From positions 24,534 through 88,533 of the forward strand of contig DATFLN010000004.1 of assembly GCA_035267645.1 (NCBI GenBank): 64,000 nt of DNA. Direction: 5' to 3'. Position numbers and translations under genes: made by a program. The stretch comes from Gemmatimonadota bacterium (GTDB lineage Bacteria > Gemmatimonadota > Gemmatimonadetes > Palauibacterales > Palauibacteraceae). Positions within the stretch are counted from its first letter, which is position 1. Each line of letters begins with the position of its first letter. Under the pieces are notes generated by a model. It did no database searches and was not told the origin of the DNA. It saw only the letters and a program-made list of their open reading frames with translations. Of the stretch, positions 16,346 to 41,814 are shown piece by piece.

Positions 16346-19200
16346 CTCCCGGCCCACCGGGCCCACGCCTCCGGGGTGAGGGAGAGGAGGTTGGCGAACA
16401 GGCGGTATGCGCCGGGCACCCCGGCCGGCAGCTCGCGGAAGAAGTCCAGCCCCGTGTACACGTAGATTCCCTCCCCGAGGGGCGCGACCAGGAGGCTCCC
16501 GAGCTTCGCACCCTCCCCCGGGTCGTGCATGGAGAGGAGCGGCACGAAGCGGTCGTCCCAGCTGTGGAGGAAATAGAGCCCGCGCTCCTGGATCCATCCC
16601 TCGAAGTCCCGGCCCCCGATCCGGTTCGGGCTCGCCAGCGGCGGCGCGTCGGGATGGAGGAGCTTCACCGGCGCCCGCTCGTCGGTCACCCGGTCGTGCG
16701 GGTGCGCCATGGTGGCCGGGTACGGGGGATAGCCCCCGTCCACGTACTCGTACTTGTTGTACTGGACGATCAGCGTGCCGCCCGCGCGCACCCAGTCCAG
16801 GAGCCGCTGGTTGGCGGCCTGCAGGTCCTTCCGGACCTCGTAGGCCCGGACGCCGAGCACGATGACGTCGAAGTCGTCGAAGCTCCCCGACCGCAGCCGG
16901 TCGGGCCCGATCATCGTGACGGGGAGGCCCAGCTGGCGGATGGCGTCGGGCACGTCGTCGCCCGAGCCCATCACGTAGCCGACCCGCCGCGTGCGGTCCA
17001 CCCGGACCGGGAAGCGCTCCACCCGGACCGAGGCGTCCGTGTACAGCGGCATCGGGTCGATGTGGGGATAGTCGATCATGGTGAGCTGGCGGGACCAGGT
17101 CCGCGTCCCGGAGCCCGCGCCGGTCGCGCGGGTCCCGGCGGAGCCGTCCGCCGCCCCGGAGCCCGTGGCTCCCGCCGCGCGGGCCACGCCCCTCAGGTGG
17201 TAGGTGCGGAACGCCGGGCCCGCCCCGCTCTCCCCGCTCCCGGCCGCGCCGTTCCGGAGCCGGAACTCGCGGCTCTCGGTCCCTCCCCGCTCGGCCAGCT
17301 CGACCCGGGCGTCGGGCGGCCGGGTGGCCCAGCCGTCCGGGACCTCCAGGTCGGCCACCGCGTGGACGGTGTCCGGAACCTGGCTCTTGAGGGTGACGGT
17401 CACGTCACGCTCCGCGGTGTCCCCCGAGGGCCACACGAGCACGCCGGGCTCGGCGGCCACCGACAAGCGGGGGACCACGTACACCGGCCTCCAGAACTCG
17501 CCCTTGGCCTTGTCGACCCCGCGGTAGCGCACGGGGCTCCCGGCCCGCACGGAGACCCCGGACGCGCCGTCTCCGACGGAGAGCTCCAGCGAGCCCGTGG
17601 CCACGGGCGGGTCCAGCGGCCGCGCGCGCACCGAGGGGTCGTCGGGCCACCGGTACAGGTCTCCCACCGTGTCCCGGCGGAGGAAGTACTCGACCGTGGG
17701 ATGCGCGTCTCCGGGCACCTCGAGCTCGAAGCTCCAGCGGGCCAGCCGGCCCGGGGGCACGGTCGTGGCGCCGGCCCCACCCTTCACCGGCGCTCCGGCC
17801 CGGTAGAACCCGGAGCGCTCCGAGGGGGTGAGCTCCACGCTGTCGGCCGGCAGGAGCCGGGCCGACCAGCCCTCCGGAAGATCGAGGCCCGGCCGTCCGG
17901 CCCGCACGGTGGACGCCCCGCCGTTCCAGACCTCCGCGTCGACGCGGACGGTCTCCCCCGGCACCCACAGGTCGTCGTGGGCCCGGAAGCGCCAGGTGAC
18001 GCCCGCCGCCGACAGGAGGGCCCGGTCGGCCAGGTCGCGCTGGCGCTCCAGCGCCGCCCTCGCGGAGGGCGCCGCGCCTCCGGTCCGCGCCAGCTCGGCC
18101 AGGTCGTCGATGGCGCGTACGGCGGCCCGGAGGGGTCCGCCCGCAGCTCCCGGATCGAGGACGCGGAGCGAGTCCCGGGCCTCGGCCACCGCCGCGACGT
18201 AGGCCGCGGCGCGCGAGCCGGCGCGCGCCCGGACGCCCTCGGGAAGCCCGTCGGCCAGACCCGCCAGGGTCGTGTCGATCCCCGCGAACAGGCCCGCGCC
18301 CGCGGGAGCGCCGGTGAGGTCCCGCAGGAGCATGAGCTGCGTGTAGCGCGGCCCCGGGGGACGCACGACCCCGAAGTCCTGCGAGCGGTGCTGGCTCCGG
18401 CTCAGCATGGCGAGCTGGAAGGGCGACATGCCGAGAACGGGATCGTACTCGCCCGTCTGCACCCGCAGGGTCGTGCTCTCGGGGGTGCGCCACGTGCGGC
18501 GGTAGAGCTTCTCCGCCCGCCACGGCCGGGCGCCCCAGGCCAGCTGCTCGGGGAAGCGCGAGCTGTCGGCCGCCGCGTCGAACGCCTCGCGGGCCAGGAT
18601 GCCGGCCACCTGGTGCTGGCCGTGTCCGTCGGCCGGCGTCCCGCTGAAGATCGAGACGATGACCTGGGGGCGGAACGTGCGGATGACCCACACCATGTCG
18701 CCCAGCAGCGTGTCTCGCGGCCAGTGGGAGAAGGACTCCTCGGCCGTCTTGGAGTAGCCGAAGTCGTAGGCGCGCGAGAAGTACTGCTCCGCCCCGTCGA
18801 TCCGGCGCGCCGCCAGGAGCTCTCCGGTCCGGATGAGGCCGAGCCCCTTCCCCAGCTCGGACCCGATCAGGTCCTGCCCACCCTCCCCGCGCGTGAGGGA
18901 GAGGTAGGCCGCCCGGGCGCCCAGGTGGCGGGCGAGCTCGGCCAGGAGCGCGCTGTCCTCGTCGTCCGGGTGGGCGCCGATCACGAGGACTCGCTTGATG
19001 GCGCCCAGCTGCCGGAGGAGGAGACCGGTCTCGACGGCCCCGCCCTCGACCGGGAGGCCCCGGTAGGGGGCCTCCTGCGCCGCCGCGGGCTCCGCGGCGA
19101 CCGCGAGGAGGGTCGTGAGGACCAGCGCGGCCAGGGCCGTGAGAGTCGGGAGTCCGGAGCGTGATCGGGAGGGGCCGGGACACATCGTGGTGGTCTGCAT
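16342..19200 (-). CDS. Secreted PIG-L/LmbE-family deacetylase with a large C-terminal extension, 952 aa
   Basis: Signal peptide LTALAALVLTTLLAVAAEPAAAQE. PIG-L motif VLVIGAHPDDEDSALLAELAR...LSLTRGEGGQD. The long C-terminal region ends in VGYVMGSGDDVPDAIRQLG...DVIVLGVRAY...GGTLIVQY. Confidence 0.8.
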   Translation of the reverse strand: MQTTTMCPGPSRSRSGLPTLTALAALVLTTLLAVAAEPAAAQEAPYRGLPVEGGAVETGLLLRQLGAIKRVLVIGAHPDDEDSALLAELARHLGARAAYLSLTRGEGGQDLIGSELGKGLGLIRTGELLAARRIDGAEQYFSRAYDFGYSKTAEESFSHWPRDTLLGDMVWVIRTFRPQVIVSIFSGTPADGHGQHQVAGILAREAFDAAADSSRFPEQLAWGARPWRAEKLYRRTWRTPESTTLRVQTGEYDPVLGMSPFQLAMLSRSQHRSQDFGVVRPPGPRYTQLMLLRDLTGAPAGAGLFAGIDTTLAGLADGLPEGVRARAGSRAAAYVAAVAEARDSLRVLDPGAAGGPLRAAVRAIDDLAELARTGGAAPSARAALERQRDLADRALLSAAGVTWRFRAHDDLWVPGETVRVDAEVWNGGASTVRAGRPGLDLPEGWSARLLPADSVELTPSERSGFYRAGAPVKGGAGATTVPPGRLARWSFELEVPGDAHPTVEYFLRRDTVGDLYRWPDDPSVRARPLDPPVATGSLELSVGDGASGVSVRAGSPVRYRGVDKAKGEFWRPVYVVPRLSVAAEPGVLVWPSGDTAERDVTVTLKSQVPDTVHAVADLEVPDGWATRPPDARVELAERGGTESREFRLRNGAAGSGESGAGPAFRTYHLRGVARAAGATGSGAADGSAGTRATGAGSGTRTWSRQLTMIDYPHIDPMPLYTDASVRVERFPVRVDRTRRVGYVMGSGDDVPDAIRQLGLPVTMIGPDRLRSGSFDDFDVIVLGVRAYEVRKDLQAANQRLLDWVRAGGTLIVQYNKYEYVDGGYPPYPATMAHPHDRVTDERAPVKLLHPDAPPLASPNRIGGRDFEGWIQERGLYFLHSWDDRFVPLLSMHDPGEGAKLGSLLVAPLGEGIYVYTGLDFFRELPAGVPGAYRLFANLLSLTPEAWARWAGS

Positions 19201-19322
19201 GGCCGCGAAGCTAGGCCCGACGTCCCGGCGGGGAAAGGGTCCCCGCCCGCGCGGCAGGGGGAACGGGGGCGGCGCCGCTCACGTTGGCAGTCGGGCCCGC
19301 TAGGCCCTAGCCTGCACACGGC

Positions 19323-20783
19323 GTGAGCGTGGGGCGGCCGCCACCCGAGGAAGACGATTCACATGACGCCACGGTCGGACTCAGCGAGCCGGGAGCCTTG
19401 GGAAGCGTGACCGCGTGGGCCCTGCTCCTCCTGTACGGGCTGGTCTTCTTCGTCCTCTCGCCGTCGGCCTCCGACGCCGGAGGCTTCTACGAGGGACGCT
19501 CTCGCTCGGGCAGCTCGCCGGGGACCCCGCTCCTGTTCGCCACCGTCTTCGTGTCGTGGATCTTCGCCAAGTCCGTGACGAACGCGGCCAACCTCACGGG
19601 GACCTACGGCCTGCCCGGCGGCGTGGCGTACGGCGCCTGGTGGCTCTCGATCCCGGTGGCGGGCGTGGTGATCGTCGCGCTCCGCCGGAGGTTCGGGGCC
19701 CGCTCGCTGCCGGGCTGGGTGCGCTCCCGGTACGGCCGCGCGGCGGCGCTGGCCTTCCTCGTGGCCGTCCTCATCCGGCTCTACAACGAGGTGTGGAGCA
19801 ACACGGCGGTGGTGGCGGCCTACTTCGGGCCGCGCGGATCGGGCGCCTTCCTGCTCGCGGCCGGCGCGTTCACGGCGCTGACGCTCCTCTACACGCTCAA
19901 GGGCGGCCTGCGCAGCTCGATCTTCACGGACGCCGTGCAGGCGGGCCTGTTCGGGGCCTTCGTGGTGCTCGTCGTCCTCCTGGCCTTCCCTCGCACGGGC
20001 GCCGGCCTGCGCCGGGTGGCCACGTCCGGCCACTGGACGCTGGCCGGCGGCGTGGACCTCCTCCTGGTCGGCCTCCTCCAGTCCTTCAGCTATCCGTTCC
20101 ACGACCCGGTCCTCACCGACCGGGGCTTCCTGTCCGGGCCCCGGGAGACGCTGCGGGCCTTCGGGCTGGCGGGGGCCCTCGGCTTCGCGGCCATCGTGCT
20201 CTTCGGCCTGGTCGGGATCCCCGCCTACCTCGGCGGCACGCCCTTCCACGACGATGCGCCCCGGGCGGTGGCCTCGGCGCTGGGCGCCGGAGCGCTCCTC
20301 ATGGTGAACGTCGTCATGCTCACCTCGGCCGGCTCCACCCTGGACTCGACGTTCTCCTCGATCGCGAAGGCCATCGACCGGGACGGGCCCGAGATCCTGC
20401 GCGGGCCGCGGCCGGCCGGCTCGCTGTCGGGCGGGCGCGCCGCCATGGTCGCGATCGCGGTGCTCGGGAACCTCCCCCTCCTGTTCGGGGCGAGGATCCT
20501 CCAGGCCACCACCGTGAGCGGCACGATGGTGATCGGCCTCGCCCCCATCTTCCTCCTCGGCCTCGTGCTCCGGGCGCCCCCCCTCTCCTTCCACCTGGCG
20601 TTCTGGGCCGGCGTGGCGATCGGGATCGCGCAGGCGGCCGGTCTCGTTCCGGCCGCCCTCCGCATCGGGAGCGGCCGCTACGCCGACCTCCTGGGCGCCA
20701 ACCTGTGGGGCCTGGTCCTGGTCACCGCCCTCTTCCTCCTGCCCGTCCTGGCTCACCCGAGACCTGCGAGGAGACCCCGATGA
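19323..20783 (+). CDS. Multi-pass permease, sodium:solute symporter (SSS)-like
   Basis: 486 aa and highly hydrophobic with about 12-13 predicted helices. SSS-like GGLRSSIFTDAVQ motif. Start uncertain: GTG 19323 or in-frame GTG 19407. The stop overlaps the next start (ATGA 20780-20783). Confidence 0.65.
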   Translation: MSVGRPPPEEDDSHDATVGLSEPGALGSVTAWALLLLYGLVFFVLSPSASDAGGFYEGRSRSGSSPGTPLLFATVFVSWIFAKSVTNAANLTGTYGLPGGVAYGAWWLSIPVAGVVIVALRRRFGARSLPGWVRSRYGRAAALAFLVAVLIRLYNEVWSNTAVVAAYFGPRGSGAFLLAAGAFTALTLLYTLKGGLRSSIFTDAVQAGLFGAFVVLVVLLAFPRTGAGLRRVATSGHWTLAGGVDLLLVGLLQSFSYPFHDPVLTDRGFLSGPRETLRAFGLAGALGFAAIVLFGLVGIPAYLGGTPFHDDAPRAVASALGAGALLMVNVVMLTSAGSTLDSTFSSIAKAIDRDGPEILRGPRPAGSLSGGRAAMVAIAVLGNLPLLFGARILQATTVSGTMVIGLAPIFLLGLVLRAPPLSFHLAFWAGVAIGIAQAAGLVPAALRIGSGRYADLLGANLWGLVLVTALFLLPVLAHPRPARRPR

Positions 20784-22192
20784 CCGATGCCGCGAATCGA
20801 GACGCCGAGACCGTCGACGCCCTGGTCATCGGCACGGGCCAGGCCGGGACCCCCCTGGCCGGAGCCCTGGCCGCCGACGGGCGCCGGACCGCGATCGTGG
20901 AGCGGGGGCGCGTCGGCGGGACCTGCGTGCTGCGCGGCTGCACGCCCACCAAGACCATGGTCGCGAGCGCACGGGTGGCCTACCTGGCCCGGCGTGCGTC
21001 CGACTACGGCGTCCGGACCGGGCCCGTGTCGGTGGACCTGGAGGCGGTGCGGGCGCGGAAGCGGGACATCGTCGACGCCTGGAGCGAGAGCGAGCGGAAG
21101 CATCTGGAGGAGACGGAGGGCCTGGAGCTGGTGTTCGGGGAAGCCCGCTTCGTGGCGGAACGGACCGTCGAGGTCGCGCTGCGGGAGGGCGGGACCCGGC
21201 GGCTCTCGGCGCCGTGGGTGTTCCTCGACACCGGCTCGCGACCGGCCGTCCCCCCGCTCGACGGGCTGGAGGACGTCCCCTACCTGGACTCCACCTCGAT
21301 CATGGAGCTCGGGGAGGTCCCCGACCACCTCGTGGTCCTGGGCGGGGGCCCGCTCGGGCTCGAGTTCGCCCAAATGTTCCGGCGCTTCGGGGCCGAGGTG
21401 ACCATCGTGGAGCGGGGGAGCCGCCTGGCCGCAGGGGAGGACGAGGACGTCTCGGACGCCCTGCGGGAGATCCTGGAGGAGGACGGCCTCCGGGTGCTCA
21501 CGGACGCGGATGCGAGCGCGGTCCGGGGCGGCGACGGCTCCGGGCCCATCCGGCTCTCCGTGCGCGGCCCGGACGGACCCGTGGAGCTCGCCGGGAGCCA
21601 CCTCCTGGTCGCCGCCGGTCGCGCGCCCAACACGGACCGGCTGGACCTCGCGGCCACCGGCCTGGCCACCGACGAGCGTGGCCACGTCCAGGTGAACGGG
21701 CGCCTCGAGACCACGGTGGAGGGGATCTGGGCCCTGGGCGACATCACCGGACATCCGGCGTTCACCCACACCTCGTACGACGACTACCGGATCGTGAAGG
21801 CCAACCTCCTGGACGGTGGTGACCGCTCCACGGAGGACCGTATCCTCACCTACACCGTGTTCACCGATCCCCAGCTCGGACGTGTCGGGTCCACCGAGCG
21901 GGACGCGCGGAACGAGTTTCGCGAAGTCCGCGTTGCGAAGCTCCCGATGAGCCGGGTGGCCCGCGCGATCGAGACGGACGAGACCCGCGGCTTCATGAAG
22001 GCCGTCGTGGACGGCGGCAGCGGCCGGATCCTCGGCGCGGCGGTGCTCGGGATCGACGGAGGCGAGGTGGCGGCGATGCTGAAGCTGGCGATGATGGGCG
22101 GCCTGCGGGCGGCGGACCTGCATCACGCGGTCCTGGCCCACCCCACGCTGGCCGAATCGCTCAACAACCTGTTCGAGGAGGCCCTGACGTGA
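20780..22192 (+). CDS. Class-I pyridine nucleotide-disulfide oxidoreductase, RclA-like (not MerA)
   Basis: Frame of ORF 19415..22192, starting at ATG 20780 (MTDAANRDAETVDALVIGTGQAG). Redox CxxxxC in GGTCVLRGCTPTK. FTHTSYDDYRIVKANLLDGGDRSTEDRILTYTVFTDPQLGRVG resembles E. coli RclA FTYISLDDYRIVRDELLGEGKRSTDDRKNVPYSVFMTPPLSRVG from memory. C-terminal HPTLAE; no NmerA domain and no C-terminal Cys pair. Confidence 0.8.
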   Translation: MTDAANRDAETVDALVIGTGQAGTPLAGALAADGRRTAIVERGRVGGTCVLRGCTPTKTMVASARVAYLARRASDYGVRTGPVSVDLEAVRARKRDIVDAWSESERKHLEETEGLELVFGEARFVAERTVEVALREGGTRRLSAPWVFLDTGSRPAVPPLDGLEDVPYLDSTSIMELGEVPDHLVVLGGGPLGLEFAQMFRRFGAEVTIVERGSRLAAGEDEDVSDALREILEEDGLRVLTDADASAVRGGDGSGPIRLSVRGPDGPVELAGSHLLVAAGRAPNTDRLDLAATGLATDERGHVQVNGRLETTVEGIWALGDITGHPAFTHTSYDDYRIVKANLLDGGDRSTEDRILTYTVFTDPQLGRVGSTERDARNEFREVRVAKLPMSRVARAIETDETRGFMKAVVDGGSGRILGAAVLGIDGGEVAAMLKLAMMGGLRAADLHHAVLAHPTLAESLNNLFEEALT

Positions 22193-23136
22193 GCGAGCCG
22201 GACGGAAGGACGACGCGGTGGAGCGGAGCGCGGATCGGCCGGTGGCCGTTCCTGGCCGCGGCTCTCGTGGTGGGAGCGGTGACGGCCGCGGCCTGCTCGG
22301 GAGGCGGAGGCGGGAGCGGCGGCGGAGCCTTCACGATCGGGGCCATCCCGGACCAGGACCCCGAGAAGCTCCAGCGGCTGTTCGGGAAGGTGGCCGACTA
22401 CCTGCACGGGAAGCTGGACGTGCCCGTCCAGTACAAGCCGGTCACCGACTACGCGGCCGCCGTGACGGCCTTCCGGGTCGGCGACCTGGACATGGTGTGG
22501 TTCGGCGGGCTGACGGGCGTGCAGGCCCGCCTGCAGGTCCCCGGGGCGCACGCCCTGGCGCAGCGCGGGATCGACGAGGGCTTCCACAGCGTCTTCCTGG
22601 CCAACACCTCGACCGACCTCCAGCCCATCGACAGCCTCCCGGGGCTCGCGGAGCTGAAGGGACACACCTTCACGTTCGGGAGCCAGATCTCGACCTCCGG
22701 TCGCCTCATGCCCCAGTACTTCCTGGGCGAGGCCGGCGTGGGCGTGGATGACTTCGAGGGGGAGCCCGGCTTCTCGGGCTCGCACGACAAGACCATCAAG
22801 CTCGTCGAGTCGGGGACCTACGACGCGGGCGTCGCGAACGAGCAGGTGTGGCGGAGCCGGGTGGACTCCGGGCGGGTCGACACGACCCGGGTGCGCGTGA
22901 TCTGGCGGACCCCGCCCTACCACGACTACCACTGGGTCATCCGGCCCGGCCTGGACGACAGGTTCGGGAAGGGCTTCACGGACCGCGTGCGGCAGGCCCT
23001 GCTGGGGCTGAGCCCCGACGACCCGGCCCAGAAGGAGATCCTGGACCTGTTCGGGGCGCGGCGCTTCGTGCCCACGGCCGACTCGAGCTACGACCAGATC
23101 GAGGCCGTCGGAAGGGACATCGGCAAGATCCAGTGA
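22189..23136 (+). CDS. PhnD-family ABC substrate-binding lipoprotein (phosphonate/phosphite-type fold; substrate unknown)
   Basis: 315 aa. Lipobox AAACSGGGGGSGGG. PhnD-like motifs FTIGAIPDQDPEKL, DMVWFGGLTGV, FTFGSQISTSGRLMP and YHDYHWVIRP. The GTG start overlaps the upstream stop (GTGA 22189-22192). Confidence 0.85.
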   Translation: MSEPDGRTTRWSGARIGRWPFLAAALVVGAVTAAACSGGGGGSGGGAFTIGAIPDQDPEKLQRLFGKVADYLHGKLDVPVQYKPVTDYAAAVTAFRVGDLDMVWFGGLTGVQARLQVPGAHALAQRGIDEGFHSVFLANTSTDLQPIDSLPGLAELKGHTFTFGSQISTSGRLMPQYFLGEAGVGVDDFEGEPGFSGSHDKTIKLVESGTYDAGVANEQVWRSRVDSGRVDTTRVRVIWRTPPYHDYHWVIRPGLDDRFGKGFTDRVRQALLGLSPDDPAQKEILDLFGARRFVPTADSSYDQIEAVGRDIGKIQ

Positions 23137-23882
23137 CGCCGCCCGTCTTCGAGCTCCGGGACGTCCGCCGCAGCTTCGGCTCGACCGAGGCCGTGTCCGG
23201 CCTGGACCTCGTGGTCCGTCCGGGCGAGAGGGTGGCGCTGGCGGGACCGAGCGGCGCCGGCAAGACCACCCTCATCGGCCTCCTGAACGGCACGCTCCTC
23301 CCCAGCACGGGCTCCGTCCGCATCTTCGGCCGGGACACCCGGCAGGTGGGGGCACGCGAGCTCCGCCGCCTCCAGCGGAGGATCGGGACGGTCTACCAGC
23401 AGTTCCACCTGGTCGACGAGCTCCGGGTGATCCACAACGTGAACGCGGGGAGGCTGGGCCGCTGGTCCCTGGCCCGCGCGGCGCTGTCGCTCGTCTCGCC
23501 CCGCGAGGCCGAGGACACCCGGCGCCTCCTGGGACGGGTGGGGATGGCGGGGAAGCTGTACGAGCGCACGGGGGACCTGTCGGGGGGCGAACAGCAGCGG
23601 GTCGCGCTGAGCCGGGTCCTGGCCCAGGATCCCGACGTCATCCTCGCGGACGAGCCGATCGCGAGCCTGGACCGGGAGAACAGCCGGGAGGTCATGGACC
23701 TCCTGCGGGACCTGGTCGAGGAGAGGGGACGCACGGCCGTCATCAGCCTCCACGACGTCTCCTTCGCGCTGAGCCACTGCGAGCGGGTGGTGGGCGTCCG
23801 CTCGGGTCGGGTCCTGTTCGACGAGCCCGCCGCCTCGGTCACCTCCGAGATGACGGACGAGCTCTACCGCATCGAACGGTGA
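23133..23882 (+). CDS. PhnC-like ABC ATP-binding protein
   Basis: Frame of ORF 22848..23882. GTG 23133 overlaps the PhnD-like stop. Walker A GPSGAGKTT, signature LSGGEQQRVALSRVL, Walker B VILADEP, H-loop ISLHD. Confidence 0.9.
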   Translation: MTPPVFELRDVRRSFGSTEAVSGLDLVVRPGERVALAGPSGAGKTTLIGLLNGTLLPSTGSVRIFGRDTRQVGARELRRLQRRIGTVYQQFHLVDELRVIHNVNAGRLGRWSLARAALSLVSPREAEDTRRLLGRVGMAGKLYERTGDLSGGEQQRVALSRVLAQDPDVILADEPIASLDRENSREVMDLLRDLVEERGRTAVISLHDVSFALSHCERVVGVRSGRVLFDEPAASVTSEMTDELYRIER

Positions 23883-25636
23883 GCGGAGCCGGGGAGGCGG
23901 CGGCAGCGCCCGGGGAGGCGGCCCCGCCGCGCCCGCTCCGCCCGAGCGCCCACACCTTCTGGGGCGTGGCCGCCCTCGTGGCGGTGGGCGTCGCCGCGGC
24001 GGTGGCCGTCGCGCCGGGCGGCCGCCTGGTGAACGTCCGGGGATGGTCGGAGCTCGCCCGCTTCTTCGCCGCCGCCCTCCACCCGGAGCTGGGGCGGGGC
24101 TTCGTCCCCCTCACGCTCCACGCCTCGCTGGTCACGCTCGCCTTCGCGGTGTGCGGCACCATCGTGAGCCTCGTCCTCGGCCTCACGGGCGGGATCCTGG
24201 CGTCGGAGACCTTCTGGAGGATGGCGGTCTCGGGCCGGACGGACGCGGGAGGGATCCGGAGCCGGGGGCCCTGGGTCGTCGTCCGGGCCTGCCTCGCGGT
24301 CCCGAGGGGCATCCACGAGATCGTGTGGGGGCTCCTGTTCGTGAACCTGGTGGGCCTGGATCCGGTGGTGGGGGTGGCCGCGATCGCCATCCCCTACGGC
24401 GCGATGACCGCCAAGGTCTACTCCGAGATCCTGGACGAGGCGGACCACCGGGCCATGCGGGCCCTCCGCTCAGCGGGGGCCGGGCGCGCCGCCGCCTTCC
24501 TGTACGGGCTGTTCCCGAGGGCCGCGCGGGACCTGGCCTCCTACGCCTTCTACCGGTTCGAGTGCTCGATCCGCTCGGCGGCCGTGCTCGGGATCATCGG
24601 GGCCGGGGGGCTCGGCTACCAGATCTTCCTGAGCCTCCAGTCCCTCCGCTACGAGCAGATGTGGACCTTCCTGTACGCGCTCATCGTCGTGGCGGGGCTC
24701 AGTGACCTGTGGAGCGGGCTGTTCCGGAGCCACCTGGGGGCCGCGACCCGGATCGACCTGGGCCTGGACGACCGGGACGCCCGGCCCGGGGCGCCGCGGA
24801 GGCCTCCCGCCCGGGCCGACCGCGTGGTCCGCGCCTCGTTCGTCCTGTTCGCGCTCCTGGCGGTCCTCTCCTTCTGGCACCTCGGGCCCCACTTCGGGCG
24901 CCTGTTCAGCGCCGGGACGGGCCATCAGCTCGCGGGCCTGGCCGGGAGGGCGTGGCCGCCGGCCCTGGGGGGCGTGAGCCTCGGGCACATGTTCGTCCTG
25001 GCCGGGAAGACGCTGGCCCTATCCGTCCTGGCCATCGCGGTGGCCGGCGCGGGCGGGGTGCTCCTGGCCTTCCCGGCGGCGTACAATTTCCTCCTCCCCG
25101 GCGGCATCCTCCTCGGCGAGAACGGGGGCGGCCCGGTGCGGCGCGCGCTCGGCGCGGCAGGCTTCGGGATCGCGCGGCTCCTCCTCCTGGTCCTCCGGGC
25201 CATCCCCGCCCCGATCTCCGCGCTCCTCCTCCTCTACGTGCTCTTCCCGGGGATCGTGCCCGGCGCGCTCGCACTCGGGCTCTACACCCTGGGCGTCCTC
25301 GGGCGGCTCATGGCGGAGGTGGTCGAGGGGCTGGAAAGGAGGCCGCTGCGGGCCCTCCGGGCCCAGGGCGCGTCGGGGCTCCAGGTCTTCCTGTACGGGG
25401 TCCTCCCCGCCACGCTCCGGCGCTTCGTCTCCTATACTTTCTACCGGTGGGAGGTCGCCATCGCCGGGACGGTCATGGTGGGCCTGGTGGGGGCCGGCGG
25501 GCTGGGCGTCCTCCTCACCGAGCAGCTCAGCAGCTTTGCCTACGACGCGGCGCTCACCACCCTGCTCTTCTACGTCGGGCTCCTGTTCGTGGGCGACATG
25601 GTGAGCGCCACCGCCCGCCGACAGCTCAGGGAATAG
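23879..25636 (+). CDS. Fused double PhnE-like ABC permease
   Basis: 585 aa. The GTG start overlaps the PhnC-like stop (GTGA 23879-23882). Two repeated permease halves each carry a PhnE-type loop (YGAMTAKVYSEILDEADHRAMRALRSAGAGRAAAF and LGRLMAEVVEGLERRPLRALRAQGASGLQVF). Confidence 0.85.
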   Translation: MSGAGEAAAAPGEAAPPRPLRPSAHTFWGVAALVAVGVAAAVAVAPGGRLVNVRGWSELARFFAAALHPELGRGFVPLTLHASLVTLAFAVCGTIVSLVLGLTGGILASETFWRMAVSGRTDAGGIRSRGPWVVVRACLAVPRGIHEIVWGLLFVNLVGLDPVVGVAAIAIPYGAMTAKVYSEILDEADHRAMRALRSAGAGRAAAFLYGLFPRAARDLASYAFYRFECSIRSAAVLGIIGAGGLGYQIFLSLQSLRYEQMWTFLYALIVVAGLSDLWSGLFRSHLGAATRIDLGLDDRDARPGAPRRPPARADRVVRASFVLFALLAVLSFWHLGPHFGRLFSAGTGHQLAGLAGRAWPPALGGVSLGHMFVLAGKTLALSVLAIAVAGAGGVLLAFPAAYNFLLPGGILLGENGGGPVRRALGAAGFGIARLLLLVLRAIPAPISALLLLYVLFPGIVPGALALGLYTLGVLGRLMAEVVEGLERRPLRALRAQGASGLQVFLYGVLPATLRRFVSYTFYRWEVAIAGTVMVGLVGAGGLGVLLTEQLSSFAYDAALTTLLFYVGLLFVGDMVSATARRQLRE

Positions 25637-25645
25637 GAGGGCTCC

Positions 25646-26965
25646 ATGGCGCAGATGAAGCAGACGCTGGTCGACGCGCCCCGCCTGGTCGAGTGGGTGC
25701 GCGACGCGCGCGAGCGGACCCGAACGCTGGTCTCCGACCTCGACGACGAGCAGCTCCTCGGGCCCCGCCTCTCCATCGTGAACCCGCTCCTGTGGGAGAT
25801 CGGGCACCTGGCCTGGTTCCAGGAGAAGTTCGCCCTCAGGGGGGCGCTGGGCCGGGACCCGATCCGCGCGGACGCGGACGAGCTGTGGGACTCGATGGCC
25901 GTGGCGCACGACACGCGCTGGGACCTCCCCCTCCCCTCCCGGGAGGAGACGCTGGCCTACATGCGGGCCGTCGAGGACGCCGTGGTCGAGGCGCTCGAGG
26001 CCTCGCCCGACGAGGACCTCCTCTACCACGCCCTGTACACGGTCTACCACGAGGACATGCACGCCGAGGCGTTCACCTGCACCCGGCAGACGTGCGGATG
26101 GCCGGCCCCGCCCCTCGGCGCCTCAGGCGGGGAGGAGGTCGCCGGCGGCCCGCCGCCGGAGGGCGACGCGGAGGTGCCGGGGACGGCGGCGTTCGCGCTC
26201 GGCGCCCCCCGGGACGCGCCCTTCGCCTTCGACAACGAGCAATGGGCGCACCCGGTCCCGCTCGAGCCCTTCCGCATCGCGAGGCGGCCGGTCACGCAGG
26301 GCGAGTTCGCCGCGTTCGTGGACGACGGCGGCTACGAGCGGGACGAGCTGTGGAGCGAGGCGGGGCTGGCGTGGCGCGAGGAGACGGGGGCCGACGCGCC
26401 GCCGTACTGGAGCCGGGAGGGGGGCGGCTGGACCCGCCGGACGTTCGACCGGCGGGTGCCGCTCGAGCCGGAGCTCCCGATGGTCCACGCGAGCTGGTTC
26501 GAGGCCGAGGCCTGGTGCCGGTGGGCCGGCCGCAGGCTCCCCACCGAGGCCGAGTGGGAGGCGGCCGCGGGCTCTCCGGCGGCGGACGGGGAGCTGGACG
26601 GGCGGGCCGAGGCCAAGCTCCGCCATCCGTGGGGCGAGGAGCAGGACGCGGCCGGGCGGGCCAACCTGGACGGCCTGGCCGGGGGGTGCGTCCCGGCGGG
26701 CCGGCTGCCGGCGGGACGGAGCCCGCACGGGTGCGTGGACATGCTCGGGCAGGTGTGGGAGTGGACCTCCAGCGACTTCGGCCCCTATCCCGACTTCTCG
26801 CCCGACCCGTACGAGGCCTACTCGGAGCCCTGGTTCGGGGGCCGGAAGGTGCTGCGCGGAGGGAGCTGGGCCACGCGCTCCCGGCTCGTGTGGAGCACCT
26901 ACCGGAACTACTTCACGCCCGACCGGCGGGACGTGTTCGCGGGCTTCAGGACGTGCGCGATCTAG
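25646..26965 (+). CDS. EgtB/SenA-family non-haem-iron enzyme (DinB_2 + FGE-sulfatase domains); candidate selenoneine/ergothioneine-type C-chalcogen bond synthase
   Basis: 439 aa with AGGAGG Shine-Dalgarno 8 nt upstream. N-terminal EIGHLAWFQEKF and YHEDMHAEAF (His triad). C-terminal FRIARRPVTQGEFAAFV, GQVWEWTSSDF and VLRGGSWATRS. Confidence 0.8.
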   Translation: MAQMKQTLVDAPRLVEWVRDARERTRTLVSDLDDEQLLGPRLSIVNPLLWEIGHLAWFQEKFALRGALGRDPIRADADELWDSMAVAHDTRWDLPLPSREETLAYMRAVEDAVVEALEASPDEDLLYHALYTVYHEDMHAEAFTCTRQTCGWPAPPLGASGGEEVAGGPPPEGDAEVPGTAAFALGAPRDAPFAFDNEQWAHPVPLEPFRIARRPVTQGEFAAFVDDGGYERDELWSEAGLAWREETGADAPPYWSREGGGWTRRTFDRRVPLEPELPMVHASWFEAEAWCRWAGRRLPTEAEWEAAAGSPAADGELDGRAEAKLRHPWGEEQDAAGRANLDGLAGGCVPAGRLPAGRSPHGCVDMLGQVWEWTSSDFGPYPDFSPDPYEAYSEPWFGGRKVLRGGSWATRSRLVWSTYRNYFTPDRRDVFAGFRTCAI

Positions 26966-27017
26966 GCCGGGCGGGGCGGGACTGGGGCCGGCGCGCGCCC
27001 CGGGACGTGGGAGCGGC

Positions 27018-28097
27018 GTGAGGATCCTCCTGGTCACCCCATCGGCCGACGCCGAGGCGCCCGGGAACCGGGTCACGGCCGACCGCTGGGCCGGCTTCCT
27101 CCGGGAGCTGGGCCACGAGGCGGAGGTCGCCGGGGCGTATCCGGGCGCGGAGGGCGGCGCGCGCCCCGACGTCCTGGTCGCCCTCCACGCCCGGAAGAGC
27201 CTCCCGTCGGTGGTGCGCTACGACGAGGAGCGGGGGTCCGGACGGGCCCCCCGGGGCGGACTCGTGGTGGCCCTCACCGGCACCGACCTGTACCGTGACC
27301 TGGCGGACTCGGACGCCGCGGCCTGGGACGCGGTCCGCCGCGCCGACCGGCTGGTGGTCCTGCAGGAGCGCGGGCCGGACGAGATGCCCCCCGAGCTCCG
27401 CGAGAGGACGCGGGTCATCTACCAGTCCGTCCCGGAGCTGTGGGACGGTGGCGCGGCGGCCGGGGACGTCCCGGGCGCGGGGGGCGAGGACGGGGAGGCC
27501 GCGGACGGGCCTGCGGCGCCCGACGCCGACGCGGCGGGGAGCGCCGGGGAGGAGGCGCTGCACGTCTGCATGCTGGCCCACCTGCGGCCGGTGAAGGACC
27601 CCCTCCTCGCGGCCGAGGCGGCCGCGCTCCTCCCGGAGGGGAGCCGCGTCCGGATCGACCACTACGGCTCGGCCTACTCGGAGGAGGTGGCCCGGCGGGC
27701 CCGGGAGGCCTCGCCCCCGGGCTCCCGGTACAGGTGGCACGGGGAGATCGGCCGCCCCGAGGCCCTCCGCCGCCTGGCCGCGAGCGACCTCCTCCTCCTC
27801 ACCTCGAAGCTCGAGGGAGCCGGGAACGCCGCCTCCGAGGCGATCACGGCCGGGGTCCCCGTGCTGTGCACGGACGTCTCGGGGCTGGTCGGCATGGTCG
27901 GCCGGGGGTACCCCGGCCTGTTCGGGGTCGGCGACGCACGAGCGCTGGCCCGGCTCCTGCGGCGAGCGGAGACCGACCCCGGGTTCGTGCGACGCCTCCG
28001 GCGACACGTCGAGCAGCGCAGGCCGCTCCTCGACCCCGCCCGGGAGCGCGACGCCTGGCGCGACCTCCTCCAGCGACTCGATCTCTCCGAGGTCTGA
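27018..28097 (+). CDS. GT-B/GT4 glycosyltransferase, SenB-like (candidate selenosugar synthase)
   Basis: 359 aa, GTG start. N-terminus MRILLVTPSADAEAPGNRVTADRWAGFLRELGHE. E-x7-E motif in SKLEGAGNAASEAITAGVPV. Assignment to the SenB family rests on my memory of that family's N-terminal signature plus adjacency to the EgtB-like gene. Confidence 0.65.
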   Translation: MRILLVTPSADAEAPGNRVTADRWAGFLRELGHEAEVAGAYPGAEGGARPDVLVALHARKSLPSVVRYDEERGSGRAPRGGLVVALTGTDLYRDLADSDAAAWDAVRRADRLVVLQERGPDEMPPELRERTRVIYQSVPELWDGGAAAGDVPGAGGEDGEAADGPAAPDADAAGSAGEEALHVCMLAHLRPVKDPLLAAEAAALLPEGSRVRIDHYGSAYSEEVARRAREASPPGSRYRWHGEIGRPEALRRLAASDLLLLTSKLEGAGNAASEAITAGVPVLCTDVSGLVGMVGRGYPGLFGVGDARALARLLRRAETDPGFVRRLRRHVEQRRPLLDPARERDAWRDLLQRLDLSEV

Positions 28098-28101
28098 CGA
28101 T

Positions 28102-29475
28102 ATGGACGCCCTCACGGTCGACCGGCTGCAGTTCGCCTTCACCGTCTCCTTCCACTACCTGTTCCCGCAGCTCACCATGGGGCTCGCCCTCCTCATCCTC
28201 CTCCTCGAGACGCAGGCCCTGCGGACGGGCGAGGAGCGCTGGGAGCGCGCCGCGCGGTTCTGGGCCAAGATCTTCGGGATCAACTTCGCCGTGGGCGTGG
28301 TCACCGGGATCCCCATGGAGTTCCAGTTCGGCACGAACTGGGCGGTGTTCTCCAGGGCCGCGGGCGGCGTCATCGGCCAGACGCTGGCCATGGAGGGCGT
28401 GTTCGCGTTCTTCCTCGAGTCGTCCTTCCTGGGGCTCTTCCTGTTCGGGCGGGAGAAGCTGGGGAAGAAGGGGCACTGGTTCACCGCGCTGGCCATGTTC
28501 CTGGGCTCGTGGCTCTCCGGCTACTTCATCGTGGCCACGGACGCCTGGATGCAGCACCCGGTGGGGCACGCCGTGGGACCGGGCGGCGAGATCGCCCTGC
28601 AGAGCTTCCGGGCGCTCCTGACCAACCCGTGGGCCATCTGGCAGTACCTGCACACGATGGTGGGGGCGGTCATCACCGGCTGCTTCGCCCTGGCGGCCGT
28701 GGGCGCCTGGTACGTCCTCGACGACCGCGAGGTGGCGTACGGCAAGATGTTCGTGCGCGTGGGCGTCCTGGTCGGCGTCGTGGCCTCGGTGGTCCAGCTC
28801 TTCCCGCTCGGGGACATCCAGGGGCGCATGGTGGCCGACCACCAGCCCCCCACCCTCGCCGCCATGGAGGGGCTGTTCCGGACCGAGCAGGGCGCGCCGC
28901 TGGCCATCGTGGGGCAGCCCGACGTGGCCCGCGGCGAGCTGGACAACCAGCTCGTCGTCCCGCGGGCGCTCAGCTTCCTCACCTACCGGCGCTGGGAGGC
29001 CGAGGTGAAGGGCCTGGACGCCTTCCCCGAGCAGGACTGGCCCGACAACATCCCGCTCCTCTACTACAGCTACCACATCATGGTCGGGCTCGGGACGATC
29101 TTCATCGCGATCCTGGCCTGGTCCGCCTTCAGGTTGTGGAGGGGGACCCTGTTCGAATCGCGCGCCACGCTGTGGCTCCTGATGCTGGCCCTTCCCTTCC
29201 CCTACATCGCCAACACGGCGGGCTGGCTCACCGCCGAGCTCGGCCGGCAGCCCTGGGTGATCTGGGGGCTGATGCGGACGTCCCAGGGCGCCTCGCCCAC
29301 CGTCTCCTCCGGGAACGGGACGTTCACGCTGGTGGGCTTCATGGGGCTCTACTTCGTCCTCGGCGTCCTCTTCCTCTTCCTCGTGGGGCGGGAGATCGCC
29401 CACGGGCCGGGAGGCGGAGACGCGACTCCGAGCGGATCCGGCGAGCCCGCCGCCGAACGGGTCCGGGGGGGCTGA
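28102..29475 (+). CDS. cydA: Cytochrome bd ubiquinol oxidase subunit I
   Basis: 457 aa. Motifs LQFAFTVSFHYLFPQLTMG, GIPMEFQFGTNW, EGVFAFFLESSF and a Q-loop region. Starts 4 nt after the GT stop. Confidence 0.95.
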   Translation: MDALTVDRLQFAFTVSFHYLFPQLTMGLALLILLLETQALRTGEERWERAARFWAKIFGINFAVGVVTGIPMEFQFGTNWAVFSRAAGGVIGQTLAMEGVFAFFLESSFLGLFLFGREKLGKKGHWFTALAMFLGSWLSGYFIVATDAWMQHPVGHAVGPGGEIALQSFRALLTNPWAIWQYLHTMVGAVITGCFALAAVGAWYVLDDREVAYGKMFVRVGVLVGVVASVVQLFPLGDIQGRMVADHQPPTLAAMEGLFRTEQGAPLAIVGQPDVARGELDNQLVVPRALSFLTYRRWEAEVKGLDAFPEQDWPDNIPLLYYSYHIMVGLGTIFIAILAWSAFRLWRGTLFESRATLWLLMLALPFPYIANTAGWLTAELGRQPWVIWGLMRTSQGASPTVSSGNGTFTLVGFMGLYFVLGVLFLFLVGREIAHGPGGGDATPSGSGEPAAERVRGG

Positions 29476-29476
29476 C

Positions 29477-30514
29477 ATGGAGACGATCTGGTTCTGGTTC
29501 GTGGCGTTCCTCCTCACCATGTACGTCCTCCTGGACGGCTTCGACCTGGGCGCCGGCGCCCTCCACCTCGTGGTGGCCCGCACCGACGAGGAGCGGCGGA
29601 CCGTCCTGCGCTCGATCGGGCCGGTGTGGGACGGGAACGAGGTGTGGCTGATCGCCGGCGGCGGGACGCTGTACTTCGCCTTCCCGGCCCTGTACGCCTC
29701 GAGCTTCAGCGGCTTCTACCTGCCGCTCATGCTCGTGCTGTGGCTCCTGGTCCTGCGCGGGATCTCGATCGAGTTCCGCAGCCACCTGGAGAACCGGGTG
29801 TGGGCGCCTTTCTGGGACGTGGTGTTCGCGGGCGCGAGCCTGCTCCTGGCCCTGTTCCTGGGCGCGGCGCTGGGGAACGTCGTGCGCGGGGTCCCGCTCG
29901 GGGAGGCGGGCTGGTTCTTCGTCCCCCTGTGGACGGACTTCCTGGTCGGTCCCGATCCGGGGGTGCTGGACTTCTACACCCTCTCGGTGGGTCTCACCGC
30001 CCTGGCCGCCCTGGCCCTGCACGGCGCGCTGTGGCTCTCCCACAAGACCGAGGGCGACGTGCAGGCCCGCGCCCGCCGCGCGGCGGGCCGCCTGTGGTGG
30101 GCCGTGGTAGGGGGCACCCTCCTCATTACGGCGCTGACCTGGTGGGTCCAGCCGCTCGTGCCGCGGCACCTGGGGGAGCGGCCGTGGGCGTGGGTCTTCC
30201 CCGCCCTGGCGCTGGCCGGCCTGGCCGCGATCCGCCGGGCGCTCGCGGCGCGGAAGGACCTGCCGGGCTTCCTGGGCTCGTGCGCCTTCCTGGCCGGCAT
30301 GCTCGCGAGCGCGGCCGTCAGCCTGTATCCGTACGTGCTGCCCTCGGTGGGACCCGGTCCGGGCCTGACCGTGCACACCGCCGCGGCCGCGCGCAGCGGC
30401 CTGGCGATCGGCCTGGCCTGGTGGATCCCCGGCATGGCGCTGGCCCTGGCCTACGTGGTCTTCCTGTACCGGAGGTTCCGCGGCAAGGTGTCGCTGGAGG
30501 GCGAGGGGTACTAG
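29477..30514 (+). CDS. cydB: Cytochrome bd ubiquinol oxidase subunit II
   Basis: 345 aa. Motif WFWFVAFLLTMYVLLDGFDLGAGAL...GPVWDGNEVWLI. Starts 1 nt after the cydA stop. Confidence 0.95.
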   Translation: METIWFWFVAFLLTMYVLLDGFDLGAGALHLVVARTDEERRTVLRSIGPVWDGNEVWLIAGGGTLYFAFPALYASSFSGFYLPLMLVLWLLVLRGISIEFRSHLENRVWAPFWDVVFAGASLLLALFLGAALGNVVRGVPLGEAGWFFVPLWTDFLVGPDPGVLDFYTLSVGLTALAALALHGALWLSHKTEGDVQARARRAAGRLWWAVVGGTLLITALTWWVQPLVPRHLGERPWAWVFPALALAGLAAIRRALAARKDLPGFLGSCAFLAGMLASAAVSLYPYVLPSVGPGPGLTVHTAAAARSGLAIGLAWWIPGMALALAYVVFLYRRFRGKVSLEGEGY

Positions 30515-30604
30515 GAGAGGCCGCCGGCGGGTCGTCGCGCGGCCCGCGTGCGAGCGATCCGGCGTTCGGCCCGCGCGAGACGACCAGGCGGAGGCGAGCT
30601 CTCG

Positions 30605-31804
30605 ATGGACGACGCACCCGAGCACGGCACGACGAGCGCGGGCTCCGAGGACGGCCCCGGCCCGGCCTCCGGCGCCGCCGTCCACCTGGGCGGACGGGAA
30701 GTCGTCGTGCTGCTCCTGGGCCTGGCGGCGAGCGTCCTCCTCGGCGTCTTCCTGTGGCCCTTCCTCGGGGCCATCATCACGAGCGGCACGCTGGCCATCC
30801 TGGTCTATCCGGCCTACCGGCGGCTCCGGGGCCGGATCTCGAACGAGAACGCCGCGGCGTTCCTCGGCTCGGCGCTCCTCTTCTTCCTCATCCTCCTCCC
30901 CCTGATCGGCCTCTCCTTCGCGCTCGCGGACCAGCTCCACCTGGGCGCCGACCGGGTGGCCCGGGACCTGGCCGGCAAGCTCGGACCCGGCGGCGACCTG
31001 CGGCAGTGGGCCGTCTCCGTGGGCCAGTCCCTGGGCCTCACGCCGGCCCAGATCACCGAGCTGATCGACCGCCAGCTCCGGGAGGTCCCGACCCTCCTGG
31101 CCCAGCACGCCGTAGGGTTCCTCTCCGGGCTCGGGGGCTCGCTCTTCCAGGGCGGGATCGCCCTGTTCACGCTGTTCTTCATGCTGCGGGACGGGCCCGC
31201 CCTGGTGGACGTCCTCCGCTGGCTCCTCCCGCTCCGGCCCGAGTACACCGACCACCTCATCGACCGCGCCCGGGAGGTCACCTACGCCACCATGTTCGGC
31301 AACGTGGTGGTGGCCATCGTGCAGGGCATCCTGGTCGGCGCGGCCTTCTGGGTGCTCGGCCTGCCGGTCCCGACGCTGTGGGGCACGCTGGCCGGGCTCC
31401 TCGCGCTCCTGCCGGTGGTCGGCGCGCCCCTGGTGTGGGCGCCCGCCGGGATCCTCCTCCTCGTCCACGGGAGCGTGGTCCGGGGTGTCATCCTCCTCGC
31501 GTTCGGCACGCTGGTGGTGAGCACGGTGGACAACCTCCTGCGGGCCGTGCTCGTGAGCGACCGGGCGCAGCTCCACCCCCTCATCGTCTTCTTCAGCGTC
31601 CTCGGCGCGATCCTCGTGTTCGGAGGCGTGGGGCTCTTCATCGGCCCCGTCCTCTTCGTCCTGGCCCTGGCCCTGATCGAGGCCGCGCGGCTGGTCCTCG
31701 AGCCCCAGCACGCCGCCGGCGGGACGATCCCCCGCGGCGAGCTCCTGCTGGACCGGCTCTCGCTGGGGGCCGCGGTGCGGAAAGGAGAGGCCCGGGGGGG
31801 CTGA
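30605..31804 (+). CDS. AI-2E (PerM/YhhT) family transporter
   Basis: Frame of ORF 30548..31804. I prefer ATG 30605 (MDDAPEHG). Multiple TM helices; the C-terminal GLLALLPVVGAPLVWAPAGILL...VLGAILVFGGVGLFIGPVLFV is typical of the family. Confidence 0.8.
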   Translation: MDDAPEHGTTSAGSEDGPGPASGAAVHLGGREVVVLLLGLAASVLLGVFLWPFLGAIITSGTLAILVYPAYRRLRGRISNENAAAFLGSALLFFLILLPLIGLSFALADQLHLGADRVARDLAGKLGPGGDLRQWAVSVGQSLGLTPAQITELIDRQLREVPTLLAQHAVGFLSGLGGSLFQGGIALFTLFFMLRDGPALVDVLRWLLPLRPEYTDHLIDRAREVTYATMFGNVVVAIVQGILVGAAFWVLGLPVPTLWGTLAGLLALLPVVGAPLVWAPAGILLLVHGSVVRGVILLAFGTLVVSTVDNLLRAVLVSDRAQLHPLIVFFSVLGAILVFGGVGLFIGPVLFVLALALIEAARLVLEPQHAAGGTIPRGELLLDRLSLGAAVRKGEARGG

Positions 31805-31883
31805 CGGGCTCGGGCGACGGGAGGAGGCCGTGGGCGCGGGCGGGCGCCGGCCGCTCCGGACGTCGTGCGGGGCCGGCGAGCGC

Positions 31884-40459: not shown

Positions 40460-40923
40460 GAGGACTCGAGCAGCTTCTGGCCGAGCACCCCTTCTTCGAG
40501 GGGATGCGCGGCGGGGACCTGGAGCTCATCGCCGGCTGCGCGCGGAACGCTCGCTTCGAGGCCGGAGAGTACCTGTTCCGCGAGGGAGAGCCCGCCGACC
40601 ACTTCTTCCTGCTGCGGAGCGGCCTCGTCTCCGTGGAGGTCCACGACCCGGCGCGGGGGAGGATCACCGTGCTGAGCGCCGGCGCGGGCGAAGTGCTGGG
40701 CTTCTCCTGGCTCATGCCGCCGTACCACTGGGTGTTCGACGCCCGGGCCATGGAGCTCACCCGGTCCGTGGTGTTCGACGGCGCGTGCCTCCGGGAGAAG
40801 TGCGAAGGGGATCCCCGCCTGGGCTACGACCTCCTCAAGCGGGTGACCGGGGTGATGATGCGCAGGCTGGAGGCGGCCAGCGTCCAGCTCCTGGACGTCT
40901 ACGGCGGGGCGGCGGCCTCGTGA
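40456..40923 (+). CDS. Stand-alone cyclic-nucleotide-binding (cNMP) domain protein, no HTH
   Basis: 155 aa. Motifs [51 protein letters not shown] and GEVLGFSWL...FDARAME. The protein ends after the C-helix with no DNA-binding domain. Confidence 0.85.
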
Positions 40924-41813: not shown

Positions 41814-41814
41814 G

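Follow-up and report, generated by a model that had tools for sequence, protein, structure and literature searches.

The stretch analysed here, a 64-kb window of ~73% GC from contig DATFLN010000004.1 of a Gemmatimonadota bacterium (hereafter, the window), carries a string of ten co-directional plus-strand genes at ~19407-31804, counting the AI-2E transporter gene at its end (Table 1). We established the identity of these genes, their junctions, their distribution across genomes and the purifying selection that acts on them. Our results indicate that the core of the string (22189-28097) belongs to a type of selenoneine (sen) locus that was described in 2022, joined by a flavoprotein disulfide reductase (FDR) that probably serves as a clade-specific accessory, and by further genes that are its neighbours in this lineage only. 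Scoring of GC content at third codon positions by frame gave a single coding frame for each listed gene, all on the plus strand, and the gene calls on the identical public contig (ENA ERZ27257072, numbered L082 among the loci that we compared) have matching coordinates for eight of nine genes. The exception is the first gene, which the public call starts at 19407 (458 aa), as against 19323, an alternative GTG start, in the first-pass annotation of the window. The start at 19407 is more likely, given the public call and the fact that the initial 17 residues read from 19323 are unconserved in relatives. Thus, the nine-gene string of that annotation does lie wholly on the plus strand, but its first start probably has to be moved and its genes are really ten.

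Table 1. Genes of the string and the intergenic regions that flank it (positions in the window)
Feature	Position	Strand	Length (aa)	Basis or remark
Divergent intergenic region between a PIG-L-family gene (-) and the first + gene	19201..19406			Presumed promoter region of the string
Divergent sodium:solute symporter (SSS) permease	19407..20783	+	458	Pfam SSF 26.1 bits (cutoff 22.8); stop overlaps FDR start
Class I FDR, RclA-like (PRK06370 type)	20780..22192	+	470	Pfam Pyr_redox_2, Pyr_redox, Pyr_redox_dim
Lipoprotein substrate-binding protein of a PhnD-like ABC importer, TIGR04553 "putative selenate" type	22189..23136	+	315	Profile, signal peptide
ABC transporter ATPase, PhnC-like	23133..23882	+	249	Pfam ABC_tran; TIGR02315 233.6 bits, under cutoff 266
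Fused double permease, two PhnE-like halves	23879..25636	+	585	TIGR01097 310.7 bits in three stretches; BPD_transp_1 twice
SenA, selenoneine synthase	25646..26965	+	439	Non-haem iron selenoxide synthase; DinB_2 and FGE-sulfatase domains
SenB, selenosugar synthase, GT4 Se-glycosyltransferase	27018..28097	+	359	TIGR04348 320 bits (cutoff 300)
Cytochrome bd oxidase subunit I (cydA)	28102..29475	+	457	Pfam Cyt_bd_oxida_I PF01654 497 bits, profile 3-418 of 418
Cytochrome bd oxidase subunit II (cydB)	29477..30514	+	345	Cyt_bd_oxida_II PF02322 294 bits, profile 1-302 of 302; TIGR00203 200 (cutoff 117)
AI-2E family (PerM/YdiK-like) membrane transporter, last gene of the string	30605..31804	+	399	Pfam AI-2E_transport 149 bits
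Convergent intergenic region shared with a DUF309 gene (-)	31805..31883			Orientation switch

The pair initially read as an EgtB-like enzyme with a SenB-like GT4 partner is SenA and SenB, both of which exceed curated NCBIfam cutoffs. SenA reaches 492 bits with its own model NF041186 (cutoff 420) and 330 bits with the EgtB model TIGR03440 (cutoff 360). Three residues tell the enzymes of this superfamily apart: M401, Q430 and A431 in OvsA go with histidine and its C5, Y, N and F in SenA go with hercynine and its C2, and it is these three residues that switch the enzyme to hercynine and C2 (PMC11030361). At the aligned positions the window protein has Y392, N421 and Y422, the hercynine-accepting type. 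Its ranking among PDB structures is headed by the YNF variant of OvsA (325 bits), which was engineered to be SenA-like (PMC11030361), followed by wild-type OvsA (316), EgtB (254) and Variovorax SenA (235). The only PDB relatives of SenB are SenB structures (8jjq, 8fbx and 8k5u, ~153 bits).

Upstream of this pair lies a three-gene importer, whose binding protein scores 361.8 bits with TIGR04553 (cutoff 250) and just 125 with the PhnD equivalog (cutoff 261). Its lipoprotein signal peptide and lipobox (...FLAAALVVGAVTAAAC/SGGG) are kept only with the start at 22189, which supports this start, since a later one would cut them off. The genes for the ATPase and the permease follow with 4-nt overlaps, and the three components (binding protein, PhnC-like ATPase, PhnE-like permease) are those of a TIGR04553 transporter of the PhnD/PtxB superfamily, the window permease being a fused double PhnE of 585 aa that is also present in loci L081 and L087. 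The importer belongs to the family that NCBI names "putative selenate ABC transporter", in line with the first-pass proposal of a PhnDCE-type importer for a chalcogen or oxyanion, and a selenium oxyanion is its predicted substrate. The family name is a hypothetical equivalog resting on gene neighbourhood, and we take the ligand that it implies to be putative only.

The assignments of SenA, SenB and TIGR04553 together bear out the earlier reading of selenium import coupled to a selenoneine-type redox buffer. That the system is undescribed is a claim we do not uphold, because both the sen pathway and the putative selenate transporter that often accompanies it have been in the literature since 2022. 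The published cluster consists of senA, senB and senC, the last a SelD (Kayrouz et al. 2022; 10.1101/2022.04.13.486033), and a putative selenate transporter lies near many of the published clusters, which form a subset of them (10.1101/2022.04.13.486033). The window resembles that cluster in having senA and senB adjacent, co-directional and above equivalog cutoffs with a selenate-type ABC transporter alongside; it differs in that no senC/selD or egtD occurs in 64 kb, that an RclA-like FDR and a permease stand upstream, and that cydAB begins 4 nt after senB. As a variation of the sen cluster, the combination of no clustered senC, an added RclA-like FDR and permease, and abutment on cydAB is new here.

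Two related systems are also worth comparing. With the ovoselenol cluster (ovsA/ovsS/ovsP/ovsM; Kayrouz et al. 2024; PMC11030361) the window has in common the enzyme superfamily and the selenosugar logic, and OvsA is the solved structure with the highest score, but the residues are of SenA type (Y/N/aromatic) and there is no OvsM methyltransferase; moreover, published ovs clusters come almost all from aquatic gammaproteobacteria (PMC11030361). The N-pi-methyltransferase OvsM was sought through the Pfam-scanned genes of the window, in which no methyltransferase domain was found, three very short or cut open reading frames (ORFs) being outside the scan. With the ergothioneine genes egtABCDE (EgtB of type I) it shares the sulfoxide-synthase fold made of DinB_2 and FGE-sulfatase domains and a redox buffer derived from histidine betaine. 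It differs from them in that the EgtB model stays below cutoff, that no egtD, egtC, egtE or egtA occurs in the window, and that the partner is a Se-glycosyltransferase as opposed to a cysteine-based route.

Several partners of the pathway are not encoded nearby. No match to SelD/SenC was found in the 64-kb window by tblastn with the SelD of L081 (E<=1e-5), and Pfam scans covering nearly all called window genes gave no AIRS-domain protein. Likewise, tblastn with the EgtD of L120 gave no match in the window, nor did the Pfam scans. The same scans and a tRNA scan of the whole window, which found no tRNA and no tRNA-Sec, detected no machinery for selenocysteine (Sec), and an Rfam scan of the whole window returned no family and no riboswitch. 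Clustering of selD is not the rule elsewhere either, as it is also absent within 10 kb in 30 of 39 well-flanked sen loci of other genomes. Most simply, selD and egtD would be encoded elsewhere in the genome. Every gene is under purifying selection, with dN/dS relative to relatives of 0.10-0.39 for all genes (SenA 0.20, SenB 0.33-0.36, FDR 0.21-0.39). We therefore rejected the idea that the sen genes are decaying for want of selD: low dN/dS (0.2-0.36) suggests that they are maintained even without a clustered copy.

We next consider how far this arrangement is shared. Homologues of every window gene were located in 80 SenA loci from different species, 39 of which have at least 5 kb on both sides. 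SenB is near senA in 62 of the 80 loci, EgtD in 23, SelD in 16, a PhnD-like protein in nine and the FDR in three; CydA, CydB, the SSS permease and the AI-2E transporter are near it in none. The well-flanked subset gives the same picture (SenB 32, EgtD 11, SelD nine, PhnD-like seven, FDR two, and zero for CydA, CydB, SSS and AI-2E). The closest outgroup, L081, whose SenA and FDR are 77% and 69% identical to those of the window, has the order flavin reductase, FDR, yceI (opposite strand), selD, phnD, phnC, phnE, senA, senB, DAHP synthase, chorismate mutase. L084 reads major facilitator superfamily (MFS) transporter, FDR, senA, senB, where the stop of the FDR gene overlaps the start of senA; in L083 the order is FDR, MFS (opposite strand), senA, senB; and L001 reads MFS, acyltransferase, FDR, senA. 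The outgroup loci L081, L083 and L084 lack cydAB, SSS and AI-2E. The full order, including the 4-nt gap between senB and cydA, is found only in L085-L088, whose FDRs are 86-92% identical to that of the window. These relatives share even unrelated divergent genes upstream, and because of this synteny and the FDR identity we assign them to the same genus-level lineage. The nearest relatives of the region are uncultured Gemmatimonadota.

One of the shared upstream genes, at 16342-19200 on the minus strand, encodes a 952-aa PIG-L-family deacetylase; it is divergent from the sen string and overlaps an upstream ABC binding-protein gene by 25 nt, an arrangement kept in L085 and L086. The L081 selD/senC (L081:4535-5596, plus strand) has an in-frame TGA at codon 20 within the conserved N-terminal motif HGAG-TGA-ACKL, so that its product probably contains selenocysteine; the public gene call begins only at 4670 and loses the N-terminus.

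Among the genes added to the published cluster, the FDR is the one of interest, as reductases of this kind recur beside senA. It carries the redox-active pair C49-x4-C54 (GGTCVLRGCTPTK) and the C-terminal dyad HPTLAE, and has no C-terminal Cys pair. Its best NCBIfam model is NF004992 (539 bits, cutoff 629), of the uncharacterised PRK06370.1-4 group, and other models likewise stay under their cutoffs: RclA NF040477 361 (740), MerA TIGR02053 344 (454) and Har 319 (650). The closest solved structure is 6kgy/6kyy (291 bits), of which 6kgy is the entry for E. coli RclA, to which papers on RclA refer. The closest structure and the family profiles thus agree with the initial label of an RclA-like reductase, with the RclA equivalog cutoff not reached. 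RclA, the Cu(II)/HOSCN reductase of E. coli, and the Har/MerA-like hypothiocyanous acid reductases share with it the class I FDR fold, the CxxxxC pair and the C-terminal His-Glu dyad; the window enzyme differs in scoring far below the equivalog cutoffs and in the lack of rclBC and rclR genes, no rclB-, rclC- or rclR-like neighbour being present in the Pfam scans of window genes. The label MerA, which homologues carry in public annotation, was rejected on account of the missing C-terminal Cys pair (the protein ends ...NNLFEEALT), the missing N-terminal HMA/NmerA domain and the sub-cutoff score.

In a tree built from the 94 FDR sequences of all loci that we retrieved, three separate clades adjoin a gene for a thio/selenoimidazole synthase. 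In clade A (L001, L050, L083 and L084) every member is beside senA, and a second clade comprises the window lineage and L081. Clade C (L113, L116, L120, L132 and L140) lies 45-125 nt upstream of egtB-egtD-egtA. Spacing within clade A varies: by tblastn, the FDRs of L084 and L001 are on the same strand as senA at 72 and 115 nt (the gene call for L084 gives an overlap with senA), that of L083 is 1.8 kb away on the same strand, and that of L050 is on the opposite strand at 1.3 kb. An FDR beside senA is present in each of the five closest SenA lineages, which use two FDR clades. The clade C loci, which are metagenomic, have strings of the type serA-serC-FDR-egtB-egtD-egtA (e.g. L120:7474-14979), with FDRs 57-60% identical to that of the window, and are the ergothioneine-side counterpart of the linkage of FDR and senA.

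Two further observations concern the surroundings of these FDRs. An ATG22-like MFS transporter is found near FDR-senA-senB in clade A loci (L001:5564-6973, L083:1291-2676, L084:788-2329), where it holds the place taken in the window by the unrelated SSS permease. Elsewhere in the window (53323-55167, plus strand), a YceI-like gene is followed by a gene for an AIF-type Pyr_redox_2 flavoprotein, which echoes the FDR-yceI neighbourhood of L081 with a different flavoprotein family.

Taken as a whole, we consider it probable that the locus combines a sen core of known type with a clade-specific FDR accessory and with neighbours confined to one lineage; the substrates of the importer and of the FDR, as well as co-transcription, we infer. 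The PhnD-type, lipoprotein-dependent ABC importer would bring in a selenium oxyanion. SenB would form a selenosugar from selenophosphate and UDP-GlcNAc, and SenA would join the selenium of this sugar to C2 of hercynine, giving a selenoxide that collapses to selenoneine; SenC/SelD and the hercynine-forming EgtD would be supplied from outside the window. The FDR is most likely a clade-specific sen accessory that would use NAD(P)H and Cys49/Cys54 to reduce an oxidised selenium species. Its first-choice substrate would be the selenenic acid or diselenide of selenoneine, and alternatively a selenite-thiol adduct to be turned into selenide for SelD. SSS, cydAB and AI-2E would have joined the sen genes only in this genus-level lineage, where they are probably co-transcribed by read-through.

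A functional link between the FDR and the sen genes is likely in our view. RclA-type enzymes reduce HOSCN, an X-S-OH species that is chemically close to selenenic acid, so that action of the FDR on selenoneine in its selenenic acid or diselenide form is chemically reasonable, and it would suit the egtB-linked clade as well. In the published pathway, the final step from selenenic acid to selenoneine was ascribed to "reduction or disproportionation" and no enzyme was assigned to it (10.1101/2022.04.13.486033). We found neither a dedicated ergothioneine or selenoneine reductase nor a sen-linked FDR in the literature, where few subscription-journal papers were covered. It would be tempting to regard the FDR as a dedicated, NAD(P)H-dependent thio/selenoimidazole reductase, which in the window would act on selenoneine as its selenenic acid or diselenide, and in clade C on ergothioneine as its sulfenic acid or disulfide, supplying the final reductive step and recycling the oxidised antioxidant, with the adjacent permease, SSS in the window and the ATG22-like MFS transporter in L001, L083 and L084, moving the betaine or a precursor. 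This more specific idea is speculative, and we hold it only tentatively.

Several points weigh against the overall interpretation. Since no SenC/SelD, EgtD or Sec machinery occurs in the 64 kb, the completeness of the pathway in this organism is unproven, and for both TIGR04553 and the FDR subfamily the substrate assignments are predicted for every member. Co-expression of the bd oxidase with the sen genes is likely, because the 4-nt gap between senB and cydA, with its GAGG ribosome-binding site, is identical in the relative L087, and it could be functional. The majority of FDR homologues with 54-62% identity have no sen or egt gene close by and most often adjoin serC, and the FDR is within 10 kb in 3 of 80 broadly sampled SenA loci, which is near a rough, uncomputed chance estimate. 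The last two points favour the notion that the FDR is a housekeeping bystander like SSS and cydAB, and that only the importer, SenA and SenB are functionally connected. Indeed, 74 of 80 metagenomic FDR homologues have no EgtB- or SenA-like gene on their contig, although many of these contigs are short; of 47 loci that extend 1 kb or more downstream, just six have such a gene there; and the FDR belongs to a family with several paralogues per genome, for which a proximity of the observed frequency may be little more than coincidence. Against this stand the same-strand adjacency of FDR and senA in L084 and L001, with L083 and L050 completing the clade, and the fact that the FDRs near senA or egtB fall in three clades and that none of the five closest SenA lineages is without one. 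We therefore regard the bystander idea as a possible but less probable account.

Another possibility is that the FDR serves selenium assimilation, reducing imported selenite or selenotrisulfide (RS-Se-SR) to selenide for SelD, and has no part in the handling of selenoneine. Glutathione-reductase-like flavoproteins are able to reduce selenodiglutathione and tellurite, the FDR stop in the window overlaps the start of the binding-protein gene, and in L081 the FDR stands just upstream of selD-phnDCE. This explanation is unlikely, since in clade A the FDRs of L001 and L084 are coupled to senA on contigs without importer or selD, and since a related FDR clade lies upstream of egtB-egtD-egtA, genes of a sulfur pathway in which no selenium has to be reduced.

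Close packing invites a wider view, in which all nine or ten genes form one stress-linked unit that purposely co-regulates the bd oxidase with the import and reduction of selenium and the synthesis of selenoneine, for instance because the bd oxidase sustains respiration when selenide or oxidants poison haem-copper oxidases. The junctions reported in the first-pass annotation are all exact when read from the sequence: 4-nt stop/start overlaps as ATGA at 20780-20783 and as GTGA at 22189-22192, 23133-23136 and 23879-23882, then gaps of 9 nt (phnE-senA), 52 nt (senA-senB), 4 nt (senB-cydA) and 1 nt (cydA-cydB), and 90 nt from the end of cydB to the ATG of the AI-2E gene at 30605. Its remark that no terminator-like hairpin lies inside was also confirmed for the intergenic gaps of the string, where our scan found no terminator-like site; the three sites found are all inside cydA or cydB, compared with a chance expectation of 1.8 +/- 1.5. 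Folding of the intergenic regions is no better than that of shuffled sequence (z +0.9 to -1.3). The region 19201-19406 is the sole non-coding gap of more than 100 nt upstream of the string, and we presume that it carries the promoter. A scan for sigma-70-like promoters gave zero matches anywhere, including this region, where a promoter must exist; it is thus uninformative for this organism and silent on internal promoters, and consensus scans for promoters and terminators are in general uninformative for this phylum. At the other end, the region 31805-31883 is the probable end of the transcription unit and would hold the terminator, with a GC-rich hairpin of -53 kcal/mol that is not significant compared with shuffles (z -1.3).

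The junction of senB and cydA, with its 4-nt gap, is kept in L087. Between positions 27850-28130 of the window and L087:7285-7565, i.e. the last ~280 nt of senB and the start of cydA, nucleotide identity is 96%, and it is ~99% over the last ~80 nt, unlike SenB overall, which shows only 76-84% protein identity. This stretch could mark a recombination boundary, or it could hold an internal element that regulates cydAB.

Nevertheless, we consider purposeful co-regulation of the whole string improbable. Neither cydA, cydB, SSS nor AI-2E stands beside SenA in any of the 80 loci or in L081, L083 and L084, the SSS orthologues occur in unrelated contexts, and the order is retained only in relatives close enough to have even the unrelated upstream genes in synteny. 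Furthermore, tight packing is common in the window, where 4-nt overlaps and a 25-nt overlap (that of the PIG-L gene and the ABC binding-protein gene, 16342-16366) join functionally unrelated genes; because such genes are packed equally tightly, close spacing is weak evidence for one function. Judging from gene order, cydAB, SSS and AI-2E are not supported as parts of a conserved system, and the claim of a conserved nine-gene unit falls with them. The linkage to cytochrome bd is, on the comparative evidence, a local accident of gene order and should not be presented as a new system.

Least probable is that the EgtB-like enzyme is OvsA, placing selenium on C5 of histidine in the ovoselenol pathway, or an EgtB that uses sulfur and makes ergothioneine: the best PDB match by score is an OvsA, but there the SenA-like YNF variant outscores the wild type, Y392/N421/Y422 stand in place of M401/Q430/A431, no OvsM-type methyltransferase turned up in the window scans, and the EgtB model falls short of its cutoff as the SenA model exceeds its own with SenB adjacent, and hence both readings were rejected.

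Homologues of the SSS permease carry just the name "sodium:solute symporter", no PDB relative was found for it, and the neighbourhoods of its orthologues give no hint of its substrate. Orthologues with 56-71% identity, from other Gemmatimonadota and Accumulibacter, lie beside a metallo-beta-lactamase-fold gene, a 2-oxoglutarate dehydrogenase gene or unrelated genes, and never beside FDR or sen genes in the loci examined; SSS is linked to sen only in L085-L088. The cydAB pair resembles the cydAB(DC) operon in its full-length CydA and CydB and in a 1-nt gap as in ordinary cydAB operons, and differs from it in having no upstream intergenic region of its own and in being followed by the AI-2E transporter gene, not cydDC.

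Some other features of the window were seen in passing. A 626-aa protein encoded at 61667-63547 (minus strand) has an N-terminal DsbA/thioredoxin-like domain fused to a full NhaA Na+/H+ antiporter. A six-gene string at 39290-44712 (plus strand) resembles a soluble [NiFe]-hydrogenase module, with a 4Fe-4S dicluster protein, a cNMP-binding protein, an NAD-binding/Fe-S protein, an Oxidored_q6 small subunit, a NiFeSe_Hases large subunit, and a HycI protease fused to a LigD-type phosphoesterase domain. Between two CBS-domain genes, a 116-aa ORF at 7576-7926 (minus strand) may be a gene fragment, since its match to haem-copper oxidase subunit I (COX1) is confined to positions 228-301.

Very few small molecules that contain selenium are known; selenoneine is among them, and its pathway was not elucidated until 2022. 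The present locus adds nothing to the core sen chemistry; rather, it shows sen genes travelling with an FDR and a permease in an under-sampled clade related to Gemmatimonadota, and the only mildly new part of it is the recurrence of the FDR beside senA. If oxidised selenoneine or ergothioneine is truly the substrate of the FDR, bacteria would have in it a first enzyme dedicated to recycling or finishing such redox buffers, and recycling by this enzyme would explain how cells keep selenoneine and ergothioneine reduced.

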